From a virus: DNA of 64,000 nt. Location of the stretch: IMG/VR virus record IMGVR_UViG_3300032050_000010; one strand, written 5' to 3'. Both the position numbers and the translations under genes were made by a program. Positions 3,934 through 27,081 of this stretch are shown piece by piece; position 1 is the first letter of the stretch; every line of letters begins with the position of its first letter. A model generated the notes under the pieces. That model had not been told where the DNA came from. It saw only the letters and a program-made list of their open reading frames with translations, and ran no database searches.

Positions 3934-4131
3934 ATGGCAAATCTAAGTGACCAGTGGGACCAGCTTAAGGTCCTAGTTGAGAGCCTCGAGGTTGATATTC
4001 GCAAGAGCCTCAACGGCAACAAGTCTGCAGGTGTTAGAGCTCGTAAGGGCCTCCGCCTTGTCAAGAATAGTGCAGCTGATCTCATCCGTACATCACTTGC
4101 ATCTTCTGGCGACACTACAGAGACTGAGTGA
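3934..4131 (+). CDS. Histone H1-like Hc1-family small DNA-binding protein
   Basis: AAGGAG RBS then ATG 3934. The sequence LKVLVESLEVDIRKSLNGNKSAGVRARKGL matches the Hc1 helical core GNK(S/A)A-x-x-R. Confidence 0.7.
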   Translation: MANLSDQWDQLKVLVESLEVDIRKSLNGNKSAGVRARKGLRLVKNSAADLIRTSLASSGDTTETE

Positions 4132-4193: not shown

Positions 4194-4415
4194 TTAAAGA
4201 ATGTGCTCAGCAAGCTTCTCTATAACTTTCTTTTCAATTTGACAAATTCTCATTCGAGTAACGCCTAAAATATCACCTATCTGCTGTAGTGATAGCGGCC
4301 CACGCTTTGAAGCTACTAGAGTGCAATTTTGATACTCACTTGAGTTTATCCAGAGCTTGCACGTCTTATTTGCACAATCTTTCTTGCAACTTTCGTGCAA
4401 TTCGAAGCATTTCAT
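4194..4415 (-). CDS. Cys-rich small protein with sigma70 region-4 HTH
   Basis: LSLQQIGDILGVTRMRICQIEKKVIEKL is a region 4.2 HTH. Five N-terminal Cys; GGAGAGG upstream on the minus strand. Confidence 0.8.
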   Translation of the reverse strand: MKCFELHESCKKDCANKTCKLWINSSEYQNCTLVASKRGPLSLQQIGDILGVTRMRICQIEKKVIEKLAEHIL

Positions 4416-8901: not shown

Positions 8902-11900
8902 ATGGCGCTAATAGGAACTATATCTGGGAGCAACGGTACTTCCACAACAGCAATCTCAGGTTCATTGATCATAGCAGACGAGCCCCTATCGAGATTTCCA
9001 GCTTTGGCGTCGGGTGTTAAGCTCTTTGTCTCAGGAAATAAGACGCCTCTCGGCTCAGACACACCTAACTCAATCTTTGGCGGTGATACATTCGTCTCCG
9101 GCGCTTTTGGCACTGACTCATACATCCAAATGAAGCCAGTTGGCACTCTCGCGATCCCTACCAATACCACCGCAAGTTACATCTACACCTCCGGATCCAC
9201 CAACGACCTCTACTTCACACAGTACCAGCCGGGAACGGGATACACCAATACGACACGACTCAGATGGCTCGAAGGAAATCTGTCTACTGGTCTCCTCCAC
9301 GGCGGTGTCCTCTCGACTGAGAATGGGACAACTACATTCAGCATTACATCGGGCTCCGGTCTGATCATCGACTACAACGCCTCTACAGTCGACGAACCCT
9401 ATCCCACAATAGTTCAAGTCGACTGGCCCGCCTATGTGAGCTCTTCACTTCCCAATATCTCGACAGCAGAGATCACCTATATTGCCATCGATTCTACAGG
9501 CGCGCTTGTCAAGCAGAATACGGCGTACATAGACGGAGACTTCGAGGACAAAATTGTCATAGGTCGTGTCCTCCACCAGAATGGTTCAGTCACTAACGGC
9601 ACCATCACTTCACCCACTGTCGCCTACGGCCAGACAGGTTTTAGAGGTGACTTCATCCGTGCATTCGGGCCTCTTAAGCTCGGCGGTCACGTTGTCTCAG
9701 TCAATGCAACCGCTACCAACCCTCCCACAAATACACAATTTCTCGGTCTTGCGAAGACGGCAGGAGACTCATACGTCGAGGGCAGGAACTACACCACAAA
9801 TCCAAACTCTCCCAACTACATCAAGTCTACAACTGACACTGCTCTAACGACATCGAAGATATACAGGGAGTATGTCAATAGCTCAGGTGTTCCTGTCATT
9901 GACACAGGCGTTGCGAATGCCGGTTACACGGCAGTCGACGTAACGAACTACAATAATGCCGGAACACTCACACCCATAGGCTCAGGAAACAAGTACACAA
10001 TCCAGCGTCTATACTGGTTCCCAAACTCTGTCAATAGAGCAATCTTTGCCTACTATGGCAATGCCATCTACACAACAATTGATGAAGCAGAGGCAGCTAT
10101 TGGGTCTGAGGCTTTCACCGAGGGTGATAATACACGTGACGCAGCAATACTTCTCGGTTATCTTATCGTCAAGGAAGGTGCGACAGATCTCAATAATGCT
10201 ACACAGGCCAAACTTATCCAGGCTGGCCTTTCCAGAGCAATCGCATCTACAGGCGGCGGTGGGAGTGCTACTACACCTGGTGGATCTGACACTTACGTCC
10301 AATACAATGACGGTGGATCGTTCAACGGAACAAACGATTTTAGATTTATCGAAGGAACAGGCACAGTTCTAGCTGCCAATCTATTTGTTACAGGAACCGC
10401 AGCAGGATCGCTGGTCTCATCCGGAACTTTCCAGGTTAAGGGCGGATCTGGAAACATTGTTGGTAGCATCTCAACAGGCGGCATCATCAGCGGATCGAGC
10501 GATCTACAGATCGGTGGAAACATCACTGGCTCAAACCTTCTTATCAATGGTGATATCACAGGATCAAACCTGCGTCTCACAGGAGACATTGCAGTACTCG
10601 GCGGAGACCTGACAACTACAGCCGCAACATTCAATCTCGCGACAAATCTAGGCACACAGCTGAATGTGGGAGGAACGACACCAACAATCAGTATTGGCAC
10701 TTCAACTGGCGCATCAACAGTTGGTATCGCCACTGGTACGAACACTCTCGCAGCCGTGATCAAGAACGTCAATATCGGAACAGGTACAGCATCCACGTCG
10801 ACAGTCCTCGTCAACATCGGATCGTCGGGATCTCTTGGGCGGACGACGCTAAACAATGACGTTTTTCTAACAACAGGGAACATCGTCGGATCTCCGGGAA
10901 GCGGTGGTGTGAACATGATGTCGCTGATCTCCAGTGGTAACATCATTGCGAGACTGGACACTGATAACAGTGCGCCTGGTCACAAGTTTGCTGTACAAAA
11001 CTACAATAGTGCTGACCAGTTCAGCGTAACTGAGACAGGTGATGCTGAGATTGCTAATACTCTGTTTGTAACTGGTAGCATTACAACAAGTGGTAGCCTA
11101 CGGTCAATCAACTCATCAGGCGACGAGGGAGGAGAGATATTCCTCTCGAAGTCCGTCACTAGCACAACACTCACGGGTGGCGTAACAATTGATGTTTGGC
11201 AGAATAGACTGAGAATGTTTGAGCAGGGAGGAAGTGCAAGGGGTTACTATCTCGACATAACAAAGGGTGGTGATTCCGTCACATCTGACCTATTCAGAGG
11301 CGACCCAATGTTCGCCTTCCTGAACAGGAGGATGCTAATTGCGCAGGTTGAGGATAGCGTAGCATCAGGCTTCTTTGGTATGTTTCCTTTCGACATCGCA
11401 ACATCGGTGTCCAATACATCATCTGTGTTAGGAAACTCAGATGCCACTATGGGATTTACCTCTCCGGCGACAGCGAACACTGCAGCAGCGTGGCGGACCA
11501 CTAACACGTGGGCACGTATTGGTCATACGGGAAGGATGAGAGTCAGACTTACGACAGGCTTAGACATAACAAGCCAGACAATTACGTTTGGGCTTGGAAC
11601 AGGAACAAGCACTAGCTCTGCTGGTAACTCATTCTCTTTCTCTCCAGCAGAGTCACAAATCTTAGCTGTCTATAATGCTGGTACTGCAAACTGGCTTTTA
11701 CTGACAAAAGATGGTACAACAGCAAATACAGTGGACACAGGCGTTGCAGTTGCCTCTAACACAGAGTATTTTATTGAGATAATTTTCACAGCCAGCACAG
11801 TGACGTTGAGTGTTAACGGCAGCACGCCGGTCTCAAGCTCCACAAACTTGCCAGCAGCAGGGACATCTTTATACCCAAGAGCCGGTATTAATCCTACAAC

Positions 11901-11967
11901 AAACGCAATCAGAGGAATGTTTATCAGCAGAATGGTTTTCGAGGCTGGTCAAGTCACGTCATATTAA
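8902..11967 (+). CDS. Long tail fibre / receptor-binding-like protein
   Basis: 1021 aa, G/S/T-rich, N-terminus paralogous to 6988..8832, internal GDITGSNL repeats, beta-rich C-terminus. Confidence 0.75.
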   Translation: MALIGTISGSNGTSTTAISGSLIIADEPLSRFPALASGVKLFVSGNKTPLGSDTPNSIFGGDTFVSGAFGTDSYIQMKPVGTLAIPTNTTASYIYTSGSTNDLYFTQYQPGTGYTNTTRLRWLEGNLSTGLLHGGVLSTENGTTTFSITSGSGLIIDYNASTVDEPYPTIVQVDWPAYVSSSLPNISTAEITYIAIDSTGALVKQNTAYIDGDFEDKIVIGRVLHQNGSVTNGTITSPTVAYGQTGFRGDFIRAFGPLKLGGHVVSVNATATNPPTNTQFLGLAKTAGDSYVEGRNYTTNPNSPNYIKSTTDTALTTSKIYREYVNSSGVPVIDTGVANAGYTAVDVTNYNNAGTLTPIGSGNKYTIQRLYWFPNSVNRAIFAYYGNAIYTTIDEAEAAIGSEAFTEGDNTRDAAILLGYLIVKEGATDLNNATQAKLIQAGLSRAIASTGGGGSATTPGGSDTYVQYNDGGSFNGTNDFRFIEGTGTVLAANLFVTGTAAGSLVSSGTFQVKGGSGNIVGSISTGGIISGSSDLQIGGNITGSNLLINGDITGSNLRLTGDIAVLGGDLTTTAATFNLATNLGTQLNVGGTTPTISIGTSTGASTVGIATGTNTLAAVIKNVNIGTGTASTSTVLVNIGSSGSLGRTTLNNDVFLTTGNIVGSPGSGGVNMMSLISSGNIIARLDTDNSAPGHKFAVQNYNSADQFSVTETGDAEIANTLFVTGSITTSGSLRSINSSGDEGGEIFLSKSVTSTTLTGGVTIDVWQNRLRMFEQGGSARGYYLDITKGGDSVTSDLFRGDPMFAFLNRRMLIAQVEDSVASGFFGMFPFDIATSVSNTSSVLGNSDATMGFTSPATANTAAAWRTTNTWARIGHTGRMRVRLTTGLDITSQTITFGLGTGTSTSSAGNSFSFSPAESQILAVYNAGTANWLLLTKDGTTANTVDTGVAVASNTEYFIEIIFTASTVTLSVNGSTPVSSSTNLPAAGTSLYPRAGINPTTNAIRGMFISRMVFEAGQVTSY

Positions 11968-11977
11968 TGGAGAATTT

Positions 11978-12178
11978 ATGATCAAGTCACTAATCTTAGA
12001 AGAAGAAGGCCAGTCCACCGTCGAGTACATGCTGCTCATCAGCGTGATTGTCATCGCGATCGTCGCTGCGGCTTATGTGTTCATCGATCCCTTTAAGCAG
12101 GGTGTACTGGATCTGGCAAAAGACATCAAGAAGATCCTCTCCGACGGCAAGATAGGCAGAGTGGGCACAACTCGTTAA
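11978..12178 (+). CDS. flp: Flp-family (Tad, type IVb/c) prepilin
   Basis: GGAG RBS and ATG 11978. Protein MIKSLILEEEG|QSTVEYMLLISVIVIAIVAAAYVF... has an 11-residue leader ending in Gly, E at +5, Y at +6, then a hydrophobic helix; 66 aa. Confidence 0.85.
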   Translation: MIKSLILEEEGQSTVEYMLLISVIVIAIVAAAYVFIDPFKQGVLDLAKDIKKILSDGKIGRVGTTR

Positions 12179-12208: not shown

Positions 12209-14080
12209 ATGGAAAAACAGATTATCTTTGTTGCTGACCTCTTTGCAGAACAATATGCCGGCGGTGCCGAACTAACTTCAGATGCACTAATTGAAGCATC
12301 ACCCACACTTGTCAAGAAAGTTCACGCAAAGAACTTGACCGTTGAGTTCTTGCAGCAGAATGTTGACGCTTTCTGGATCTTTGGCAATTTCTCATCCATC
12401 AACTGGTCACTGATCCCAGTCATCGCAGCCAATCTTCGTTATGCTGTTCTCGAGTACGACTACAAGTTCTGCCTCCACCGCTCAATTGAGAAGCACAAGC
12501 ACGAGACAGGTCAGGAGTGTGACTGTCACAAGCGACAGCTGGGTCAAATGGTTGCAGGCTTCTACCAGGCTGCGGATGCGATCTTCTGGATGTCTGAGCA
12601 GCAGCGCGCGCGCTATACAGAGCGGTTCCCAAATCTGTTGGGGCACAGGAATTCACATGTCCTAAGCTCTGTATTTGATAGTCGTTTCTTTGAGAAGATT
12701 AATCAACTTAAGAGCAAGACAGTTGATAGAAGCGGCTGGATCGTCCTCGGGTCACAGTCATGGATCAAGGGCTATGAAGACGCTGTGAAGTGGTGTGAGG
12801 ACAACGGAAAGAAGTTTCAAAGCTACTGGGATGTTCCGTACGAGGAACTGCTTGACGTCATGTCAAGATCTGAGGGATTTGTTTATCTTCCACGTGGAGG
12901 TGACACATGTCCGAGAATGGTGATCGAGGCAAAGCTTCTTGGATGTGAAGTCGTTACCAACGACAACGTGCAGCATGCAGCAGAAAAATGGTGGAATGCC
13001 AACCCAGATGATGTCTGTGATTATTTGAAGGGTAGGCCTGATGTGTTTTGGGCGGCCATAAATAATGTGATCCAGCATCAACCGACGCTGTCTGGTTACA
13101 GCACAACCTACAATTGTGTCGATCAAAACTATCCATTCGTCGAGTCGATCACGTCTCTTCTGGATGTCTGTGATGAGGTTGTCGTCGTCGACGGTGGATC
13201 GACAGATGGTACCTGGGATGTCCTAACTGCGATGTCAAATGAGAACCCAAAGCTCAAGATCAAGCAGATCGAGCGTGACTGGAACCATCCACGACACTCT
13301 GTCTTTGATGGTATGCAGAAGGCAGCTGCTCGTGAGCTCTGCACGGGTGACTTCTGCTGGCAGCAGGACGTCGACGAGATAATCCATCAGAATGATTACC
13401 AGAAGATCCGTAATTTGCTCACATCGTCACCCAAGAGTGTAAATCTCATCTGCTTGCCTGTGACAGAATTCTGGGGTAACAAGGGTAAGATCCGGATCGA
13501 CATTAATCCCTGGAAGTGGCGCCTGAGTAGAAACCACCCAGAGATCACGCACGGCATCCCAGCAAGCCTGCGTCGTCAAGATGAGAATGGTGATCTCTAC
13601 TCTGCACCAGGATCAGATGGATGTGATTACATCACACGAAGCACAGGTGATCTAGTTCCAAATGTCAACTTCCATACGCAGCAGACAGAACAATTGCGTC
13701 AAGCTGCTGCGAGAGATCCTGCAGCAAGGCAGCAGTATGTCCAATGGCTGACAGCAGTGATCCAGAACTTACCTGGCGTCTACCACTATTCATGGTTCAA
13801 TCTTCCTCGTAAGATTAGAACTTACAAGAACTACTGGTCACGTCACTGGCAGAGCATGTACAACATCAGCCAGGATGATACAGCAGAGAACAACATGTTC
13901 TTCAATAAGCCTTGGGCTGACGTAAGTGATGATGAGATTGACCAGCTTGCTGCCCGCCTTGAGCAAGAGATGGGTGGTTGGATCTTCCACCGTAAGATTG
14001 ATTGGAACAATCCTACACCGAGTGTTATGATAAATGAAGTAACACATCCGGCTGTGATGGAAGATTATGTCAACTCCTAA
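12209..14080 (+). CDS. Two-domain glycosyltransferase (GT-B-like + GT2)
   Basis: N-half has FVYLPRGGDTCPRMVIEAKLLGC (GT-B type). C-half has DEVVVVDGGSTDGT and QQDVDE (GT-A DXD). Confidence 0.8.
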   Translation: MEKQIIFVADLFAEQYAGGAELTSDALIEASPTLVKKVHAKNLTVEFLQQNVDAFWIFGNFSSINWSLIPVIAANLRYAVLEYDYKFCLHRSIEKHKHETGQECDCHKRQLGQMVAGFYQAADAIFWMSEQQRARYTERFPNLLGHRNSHVLSSVFDSRFFEKINQLKSKTVDRSGWIVLGSQSWIKGYEDAVKWCEDNGKKFQSYWDVPYEELLDVMSRSEGFVYLPRGGDTCPRMVIEAKLLGCEVVTNDNVQHAAEKWWNANPDDVCDYLKGRPDVFWAAINNVIQHQPTLSGYSTTYNCVDQNYPFVESITSLLDVCDEVVVVDGGSTDGTWDVLTAMSNENPKLKIKQIERDWNHPRHSVFDGMQKAAARELCTGDFCWQQDVDEIIHQNDYQKIRNLLTSSPKSVNLICLPVTEFWGNKGKIRIDINPWKWRLSRNHPEITHGIPASLRRQDENGDLYSAPGSDGCDYITRSTGDLVPNVNFHTQQTEQLRQAAARDPAARQQYVQWLTAVIQNLPGVYHYSWFNLPRKIRTYKNYWSRHWQSMYNISQDDTAENNMFFNKPWADVSDDEIDQLAARLEQEMGGWIFHRKIDWNNPTPSVMINEVTHPAVMEDYVNS

Positions 14081-26265: not shown

Positions 26266-27081
26266 GTGACTACGTTCCCAACTGGCAAACCACACGTATC
26301 CTACTCTGAAGTCAAGACATGGAAAGAGTGCCCATGGCGACACAAGCTTGTCTATATTGACAAGATCGACATGTTCAAACCAAGCCCAAACATTGACTTT
26401 GGAACAATTGTCCACGCTGAACTTGAGGATTATCTAGAGCATAGAACTTTCAACCTTGACCGCATGCGTAATGCCATCACGACCACATGGCAGCAGAAGG
26501 GTTTTGAGAAGCCAGAAAACTGGATTAAAGAAGCTGAACAGATCCTAGCTGAGATCCCGCAGTTTCTCGATGACACATTTCCTGATTGGCAGTTCATGGC
26601 GTCAGAGCATGAACTTTACGAAGAGATCCCAGGATCTGATGTCAAGTTCAAGGGTTTCGTTGACGCGATGTTTCGAGCAAAGAACTCGCGCGGTAAAGAG
26701 ATCCTCTGGATCGCTGACTGGAAGACGACATCTGCACGAGGCTGGTCAACTGACAAGAAGCAAGATTTTATCTATCAGGCACAAATTGCACTCTACAAGT
26801 ACTTCTGCTCAAGGAAGTTTGATCTGGATGCAAAAGAGATCAAATGCGGTTTCGTCCTGCTGAAGCGTGGGGCAAAGCCCGGCAAGGCGTGCGAGCTTGT
26901 CGAGGTGTCTGTGGGGCCGAAAGCGTTCGAGAAAGCAACTAAGATGGTCAATTCTATGATCGCAGGCGTCAAGGCAAACAAGCCGATCAAGAATAGGATG
27001 TCTTGCACTTACTGTGACTACAAAAATACTGAGCATTGCAGTGGCTCAAGTGAGTTTGCAGCGTTTACCTCTTATAAATAG
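26266..27081 (+). CDS. Cas4/AddB-like PD-(D/E)XK exonuclease with probable Fe-S cluster
   Basis: ECP, FGTIVH, GFVD, IADWKT, QIALY, C-terminal CTYC-x7-C. Confidence 0.85.
   Translation: MTTFPTGKPHVSYSEVKTWKECPWRHKLVYIDKIDMFKPSPNIDFGTIVHAELEDYLEHRTFNLDRMRNAITTTWQQKGFEKPENWIKEAEQILAEIPQFLDDTFPDWQFMASEHELYEEIPGSDVKFKGFVDAMFRAKNSRGKEILWIADWKTTSARGWSTDKKQDFIYQAQIALYKYFCSRKFDLDAKEIKCGFVLLKRGAKPGKACELVEVSVGPKAFEKATKMVNSMIAGVKANKPIKNRMSCTYCDYKNTEHCSGSSEFAAFTSYK

Follow-up and report, generated by a model that had tools for sequence, protein, structure and literature searches.

The 64,000-nucleotide stretch of viral DNA analyzed here in its entirety (IMG/VR virus record IMGVR_UViG_3300032050_000010), hereafter referred to as the window, carries a genuine Flp-type (type IVc) prepilin gene, flp. 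The window comes from a very large, uncultured phage of fresh water, and its phage nature is evident from a gp6-like baseplate wedge gene (phrog_6, 9e-22), a PhoH gene, and a tail-fibre gene. We regard it as somewhat probable that flp is a host-derived homolog of Flp major pilins, kept by very large tailed phages as an auxiliary gene that would feed the Tad machine of the host.

The flp gene and its product

The ORF is intact on the + strand from its ATG (11978–11980) to its TAA (12176–12178), and together with the GGAG motif that precedes it, bears out the original prediction of a complete 66-aa prepilin with its own ribosome-binding site (Table 1). Its placement was also as predicted, with 10 nt between the stop of the fibre gene and the flp ATG, and a 30-nt gap between the flp stop and the start, at 12209, of the GT2 ORF that opens a glycosylation locus. 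By Pfam matches, this locus runs to ~29.5 kb and encodes GT2, GT4, and GT11 proteins, an FkbM-methyltransferase, a GDP-mannose dehydratase, an epimerase, and a UDP-Glc/GDP-Man dehydrogenase. When all six frames were scanned for G-x4-E with a hydrophobic stretch behind it, flp proved to be the sole prepilin-like ORF of the window. Promoter-like sites were no commoner around flp than in shuffled sequence (4 found versus 4.6 expected), and flp is probably co-transcribed with the fibre gene, as judged from the spacing. The identical protein in the same fibre-flp-GT arrangement was found on independent ENA, JGI, and Logan contigs; therefore, flp is not an assembly chimera, and the possibility of a chimeric host insert is refuted.

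Table 1. Features of the flp region, in window coordinates.
Feature	Position	Strand	Basis
flp, Flp-type (type IVc) prepilin gene	11978..12178 (stop included)	+	Translation, motif, family alignment A1, AF2 model
GGAG ribosome-binding site, 5 nt 5′ of the flp ATG	11969..11972	+	Read in the sequence
Predicted leader peptide MIKSLILEEEG, residues 1-11	11978..12010	+	Leader variation and conservation from G11 onward
Predicted mature pilin, 55 aa	12011..12175	+	AF2 helices, identity to bacterial orphan copies
1021-aa tail-fibre gene (upstream context)	8902..11967	+	phrog_16641 tail fiber protein, 1.1e-12
Gene for a 623-aa GT2-domain protein, opening the glycosylation locus (downstream context)	12209..14080	+	Glycos_transf_2, 1.6e-08

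Several other genes of the window lie further from flp. A PrkA/YeaG-like "serine kinase" or AAA protein is encoded at 38-1627 (+; phrog_22605, 4.6e-131) and shares ~35% identity with genes from Thermus phages and huge uncultured phages. Two small genes were mapped onto the window from sister contigs (L019 and JGI 3300042691): a 65-aa gene with a Pfam match to histone H1-like Hc1 (~3934-4131, +), and a small antisense Sigma70_r4 ORF just upstream of PhoH (~4194-4415, −). Finally, a PD-(D/E)XK nuclease gene (PDDEXK_1, 1.7e-26) occupies 26266-27081 (+) within the glycosylation locus, with sugar-nucleotide enzymes on one side and two GT4 genes on the other.

From its N-terminus onward, the flp product consists of an acidic leader with G11 as its last residue, the residues QSTVEY, a hydrophobic run of ~20 residues, a kink at D-P, and a C-terminal half that is charged. 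The Flp motif G/XXXXEY is present within the 66 aa as G11|Q-S-T-V-E16-Y17, and residues 18–36 are hydrophobic. The leader is predicted to be cut after G11 by a prepilin peptidase, and the predicted mature pilin is laid out as a hydrophobic alpha1N, a D37-P38 kink, a charged helix 2, and a flexible GRVGTTR tail. An AlphaFold2 (AF2) model built on alignment A1, which comprises 31 diverse family members, is all-helical, with helices at residues 2–33 and 36–56 and a mean pLDDT of 83. In the same alignment, E16, Y17, and G42 are invariant, and G11, Q12, M18, and V23 are at least 90% conserved.

Profile searches gave a divided answer to the original expectation that an Flp HMM would recognize the protein. 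Eight of the 31 family members match Flp_Fap weakly (best E 0.0025), and 22 of the 31 match Class_IIIsignal weakly (best 2.4e-5). The window pilin itself (P0001) has no match to Pfam PF04964 Flp_Fap, an absence that weakens membership and does not exclude it, given that short hydrophobic proteins score poorly in profiles. No Pfam gathering threshold was reached by P0001, whose sub-threshold matches are Class_IIIsignal (0.0049; 17.2 bits against a cut-off of 23.7), DUF4244 (0.042), and Flp1_like (0.12); PHROGs and NCBIfam returned no match. A profile search of PDB sequences with the pilin and a Foldseek search of the PDB likewise returned nothing, and VIA-align retrieved generic long helices only (Z about 5.5), none of the three being informative for a helical protein as short as 66 aa. 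When 1.84 billion representatives were searched exhaustively, 240 clusters emerged at E <= 1e-3.

Phage relatives and their gene order

A word-indexed search retrieved 579 metagenome protein clusters, the best 120 of which are 86–100% identical to the window pilin, and many metagenome copies are labelled "Flp pilus assembly pilin Flp" by JGI automatic annotation. Contigs that encode the exact protein reach 266 kb, and a contig of 310 kb encodes a close variant; IMG/VR contributed 18 loci with 83–91% identity. CheckV rates related phage records of 72–132 kb as 24–40% complete, which corresponds to genomes of roughly 200–370 kb. Absence or decay of the gene in all relatives, a result that would have spoken against the original prediction, was not seen: flp is intact in 26 phage loci and 579 metagenome proteins.

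At least three phage contexts, with GC contents of 0.37–0.57, carry flp. In group A (GC 0.38–0.42), which is the type of the window, fibre or PA14-like fibre cassettes are followed by flp and then by the 623-aa GT gene. In group B (GC 0.53–0.57), flp is followed by a gene for a DUF2608/HAD-like protein and then by one for a 1260-aa protein, and in group C (GC 0.38), a gene for a small secreted protein precedes flp. Both of the latter groups are phage-like, with strong PHROG matches. The fibre-flp-GT order that had been expected in relatives was kept in group A, to which it is confined, and was not found in the other groups. In some sister phages (L001-L003, L012-L015, and L017; e.g., L003:8712-10000), one or two extra fibre-like cassette genes lie between the long fibre gene and flp; these cassettes have an N-terminal M.G+.S.FAGP motif and variable lectin-like C-termini, and are absent from the window.

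Within the flanks compared (up to 10 kb per side of flp), 9 of the 18 IMG/VR loci hold no homolog of any protein from the window's first 34 kb, glycosylation genes included. The link to glycosylation is therefore not general, and the functional tie to the neighboring glycosylation locus that had been proposed was not borne out. Tail-fibre or receptor-binding-type genes adjoin flp or lie near it in 11 of 19 contexts, and the region upstream of flp looks like a swappable receptor-binding locus.

Searches of 50,697 phage records with the pilin DNA (megablast) and by tblastn found nothing, and no cultured relative of the window phage exists. The best matches to its structural genes are about 30–35% and come from an uncultured 484-kb phage, from Flavobacterium and Microcystis phages (baseplate), and from Thermus phages (kinase).

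Bacterial relatives, ancestry, and probable host

One genome per species was scanned, which brought up 112 bacterial relatives; the best 80 were kept, as 79 loci. The titles of the respective MAGs read Deltaproteobacteria, Myxococcota, or "proteobacterium", and many of the MAGs come from lakes, judging by the isolate names in those titles. Of 81 genomes sampled from the phylum Myxococcota, only 6 yielded a family member, and the family is therefore lineage-restricted.

The closest cellular copies are orphans that lie outside of Tad loci, have the same length as the window pilin, and are 70–80% identical to it overall (E about 1e-30). In the mature part, the closest bacterial copies are 79–93% identical to phage copies; over the 56-residue stretch from G11, the window pilin is 79–84% identical to bacterial orphan copies, and a sister-phage pilin is 93% identical to that of bacterial locus L045. 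The orphan copies also have a phage-like leader pattern of 10 aa, M..LI.DEEG|QSTVEY. On more than 20 MAG contigs, the orphan gene has the same neighborhood of OmpA-like, aldehyde dehydrogenase, flp, metallophosphoesterase, sulfatase/TPR protein, and NAD-dependent DNA ligase genes. The genomes in question are 5–10 Mb in size, with a GC of 0.65–0.73 (contig GC of 0.64–0.73). Several of the MAGs are titled Klebsiella or Enterobacterales (L036, L038, L042, L043, and others), organism names that are evidently wrong; these have a GC of 0.64–0.73 and Myxococcota-type synteny around the orphan flp. Mis-binned phage contigs were considered as a source of the MAG copies and rejected in view of the GC of 0.65–0.73 and the conserved housekeeping synteny. 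Moreover, similarity of MAG loci to the tested phage proteins was limited to flp, plus two unrelated phage proteins in six other loci, which also argues against mis-binning.

More distant paralogs of the family tie it to the Tad system. Each of five host-type genomes (5.3–10.4 Mb; local GC 0.57–0.72) encodes 4–8 family members and 9–18 T2SSE ATPases, and distant paralogs adjoin TadA/CpaF-type T2SSE ATPases in three of the genomes (G006, G009, and G010). At L106, a 59-aa Flp paralog with 43% identity to the phage pilin is encoded in the order Peptidase_A24, flp, RcpC/CpaB, secretin, CbiA/ParA-like::T2SSE fusion (CpaE::CpaF), and T2SSF. This is a canonical Tad locus, and since it holds a paralog of the family, the family is a bona fide Flp family. 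Two divergent Flp paralogs per locus are frequent in host-type genomes (L047, L066, L067, L069, L071, L074, L081, and others), with C-termini of ..GTG..R versus ..DGSGN.R; such pairing suggests a major pilin accompanied by an adapter or minor Flp.

Among phage copies, the leader varies (10–15 aa), and the sequence from G11 onward is nearly invariant. Pairwise comparison of the mature region gave a median dN of 0.065, a median dS of 1.18 where computable, and a median dN/dS of about 0.05, with synonymous saturation in 36 of 91 phage pairs; in one pair, the proteins are 100% identical and the DNA is 81% identical. To judge from these figures, flp is old in these phages and under strong purifying selection.

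A non-pilus membrane role, in which flp would encode a holin/antiholin-like lysis factor or membrane anchor whose likeness to Flp reflects descent only, is highly unlikely on this evidence. Like many holins, the protein combines small size with a single hydrophobic helix and a charged tail at its C-terminus; its gene has a late-gene position, and it received no PHROG, NCBIfam, or above-threshold Pfam assignment. Holins diverge fast, however, and the degree of host identity and the low dN/dS reported above extend to the surface-exposed C-terminal half of the mature protein. Furthermore, variation is confined to the predicted leader, a prepilin-like pattern.

Base composition bears on the origin of the gene. 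The GC3 of phage copies ranges from 0.21 to 0.82 (0.21–0.29 in group C and L016, and 0.62–0.82 elsewhere), as compared with 0.82–0.97 in bacterial copies, and that of the window copy, at 0.66, is the highest of 52 window genes (mean 0.42, sd 0.11). The window gene is 81–83% identical at the DNA level, over about 160–180 nt (E about 1e-40), to copies in the five host-type genomes; the only other DNA match between window positions 1-60000 and these genomes is a weak PhoH P-loop stretch. The GC3 and the DNA similarity together indicate a GC-rich donor. A rapidly built tree of low resolution unites the phage sequences in one group with bacterial L045 and L070 (SH-aLRT 90), nested among orphan copies; the phage copies may have had a single origin.

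The raised GC3 and the DNA-level likeness to bacterial copies both fit horizontal acquisition, as would also be expected of a neutral passenger, i.e., a recently captured host fragment that is functionless for the phage. This explanation is barely credible in view of the intactness of every copy examined and the occurrence of flp in three different phage contexts. In addition, some copies (GC3 0.21–0.29) show full amelioration of codon usage, and the protein is conserved despite saturation at synonymous sites.

The original observation that the window holds no other tad gene was borne out, and it extends to five related phage records of 72–132 kb, in which neither an A24 peptidase nor a T2SSE ATPase was found. 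Tblastn searches with the tad-locus proteins of the putative host matched only Flp in the window and 26 phage loci. Overall, no prepilin peptidase, ATPase, platform, secretin, or minor pilin was detected in the available phage DNA, which consists of incomplete records (fragments, CheckV 9–40%) and leaves room for machinery genes elsewhere in the genomes. Any pilin function of the phage flp must therefore rely on host machinery, and host-type genomes do encode Tad machinery, as exemplified by L106.

The pilin had also been expected to identify the host lineage, and its 70–80% identity to copies in GC-rich freshwater Myxococcota-type MAGs agrees with that expectation. A second gene speaks to the same question. 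In eight IMG/VR loci, a conserved secreted protein of 78–103 aa is encoded next to flp or near it (L004:9744-10001 (+), and also L005/L008, L006, L011, L015, L017, and L018). It matches the NCBIfam model "adventurous gliding motility protein CglF" at E 1.5e-15 with 57 bits, which is below the 90-bit cut-off. Homologs that are 54–67% identical occur in all five host-type genomes, and in the three bacterial loci read, they lie between a TPR protein and a conserved ~490-aa protein; NCBIfam matches at one locus identified the flanking proteins as GltE-like and GltG-like. Neither the window nor five group-A phage fragments, all of them incomplete, yielded this gene. The CglF-like gene points, independently of flp, to gliding Myxococcota hosts, and as far as gene content can tell, the pair shows these phages to be collectors of small subunits of host envelope machines. 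The probable hosts, as suggested by flp and by the CglF-like gene of relatives, are GC-rich freshwater Myxococcota-type bacteria. The phage GC of 0.37–0.57 lies well under the 0.65–0.73 of the closest bacterial genomes and counts against this assignment, and no spacer-like matches to window positions 1-60000 were found in the five host-type genomes.

Candidate functions and comparison with known systems

The mature phage pilin closely resembles its bacterial counterparts at the residues that matter for assembly. Phage and host copies are virtually the same over the first 25 residues of the mature part, and G-1, E+5, and Y+6 are kept. Every residue of the phage copies occurs in some bacterial copy, and no position has disjoint residue sets. 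Mature position 46 (D56; codon 12143-12145) is Asp in all 12 distinct phage pilins, as compared with Thr or Ser in 43 of 46 bacterial orphan copies and Asp in two, and may represent a lost O-glycosylation or contact site, or another functional difference. A phage-specific "poison" substitution was sought and rejected, as no residue is unique to phages. Taken together, the identity of alpha1N, the conserved G-1, E+5, and Y+6, the lack of any phage-specific residue, and the 93% identity to L045 favor a candidate assembly-competent subunit over a dominant-negative one. The original prediction, in which the phage would hijack the host Tad pilus by feeding its own pilin into it, thus gains support from the authentic Flp sequence and the lone gene, while its further suggestion of a dominant-negative or antigenically swapped subunit sits poorly with the host-identical N-terminus and the retained cleavage and assembly residues. 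The consequences that it envisaged, such as exclusion of competitors or altered adhesion or predation, may still apply.

According to the reading that we prefer, flp would be transcribed alongside the late tail-fibre genes, and the prepilin would be inserted into the host inner membrane and cleaved after G11 by the host's A24 (TadV/CpaA-type) prepilin peptidase. The host's Tad-type machine would then polymerise the phage pilin as a working subunit rather than a poison. The most likely benefit would be sustained piliation of the infected cell once host gene expression declines, the major pilin being the bulk, high-demand component of the pilus, in what would be a parallel to phage psbA. The maintained pili could conceivably be used for adhesion or, in predatory myxobacteria, for Kil-like prey contact. 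Late co-transcription would be equally compatible with sustained piliation and with a role in lysis or adsorption.

Pili are known phage receptors, and phages are also known to shut pili down. For example, Tip of D3112, Aqs1 of DMS3, and Zip are phage proteins that act on the host type IV pilus by binding assembly ATPases or regulators, thereby abolishing pili. It is conceivable that the phage Flp pilin interferes in a comparable way, by competing with or capping the host pilin or by titrating the peptidase or platform, such that Tad pili would be lost or altered and superinfection by pilus-dependent phages, or re-adsorption of progeny to the dying cell, blocked. The frequent proximity of flp to fibre and receptor-binding-type genes suggests an adsorption link, pilus-using phages commonly shut pili off, and both the uniform Asp at mature position 46 and the residues at positions 27–28, which differ from the host majority, would suit such a role. 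We nevertheless consider interference somewhat unlikely: Tip, Aqs1, and Zip are unrelated to pilins, and morons often adjoin tail-fibre genes, which explains the position of flp without recourse to function. Moreover, the pilin has neither a phage-unique residue nor a defect in its cleavage and assembly residues, and in one phage copy the mature part shares 93% identity with bacterial L045.

A broader version of the supply of working subunits would also take in the CglF/GltF-like gene. In this unlikely scenario, set in gliding and possibly predatory freshwater Myxococcota, flp and (in sister phages) CglF/GltF would be "auxiliary surface-machine genes" that supply a Tad/Kil-like pilus and an Agl-Glt-type motor, respectively, and the virocell would continue to adhere, move, or kill prey, thereby feeding a long and costly infection.

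Strongly conserved and plentiful in freshwater metagenomes, flp provides a concrete host hypothesis, namely GC-rich freshwater Myxococcota, for an orphan clade of 200–370 kb phages. To our knowledge, few phages are known for such hosts. If the subunit is really assembled, the concept of auxiliary genes would be widened from metabolism to cell-surface machines, and one 66-aa protein with one cleavage site makes for a simple, testable system.

As far as literature searches reach, no published description of an Flp pilin encoded by a bacterial phage was found. The nearest published case of a virus-supplied pilus subunit is the haloarchaeal provirus SNJ2, whose type IV pilins, PilA1 and PilA2, are assembled by host machinery (PMC12426801). 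Like SNJ2, the window phage has a virus-encoded pilin without genes for assembly machinery: its flp lies in a context of baseplate wedge, fibre, and PhoH genes, and neither A24 nor T2SSE was present in the five incomplete related records. In contrast to the window phage, a giant tailed phage of bacteria with an Flp pilin, SNJ2 is temperate, infects archaea, and has type IV pilins of the archaeal kind that are experimentally proven to form surface filaments.

A second comparison is with KilP (mxan_5121) of Myxococcus xanthus, which serves the Tad-like Kil predation pilus as its major pilin and whose gene is an orphan located outside both kil clusters (PMC12075869, PMC8460266). Compared by description, KilP and the orphan Flp family are both Flp-type, orphan, fully helical, and of the same phylum, with a G/XXXXE motif. 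KilP differs in being annotated as 97 aa, versus 66 aa for the phage pilin, and the Tad locus at L106 has a CpaE::CpaF ATPase, whereas the Kil system has one of the FHA-fused KilF type.

Finally, the phage protein is a new member of the Flp family. It resembles the Flp/Fap major pilins (PF04964), such as Caulobacter PilA and Aggregatibacter Flp1, in its size, its acidic leader ending in G, its G/XXXXEY motif, and its hydrophobic alpha1N followed by a short amphipathic helix, and bacterial members of its family are found in Tad loci. Unlike those pilins, it comes from a giant phage of the lytic type in which no tad gene was found, and the best Pfam match of P0001 is the archaeal-type Class_IIIsignal, below threshold. 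With the orphan Flp proteins of Myxococcota-type MAGs (L027-L049, e.g., L045, L046, and L027), it shares a ..KIG..GT.R tail, its length, and its leader pattern; the bacterial orphans reside in a housekeeping region with a GC3 of 0.82–0.97, whereas the window flp resides in a fibre/GT region with a GC3 of 0.66.
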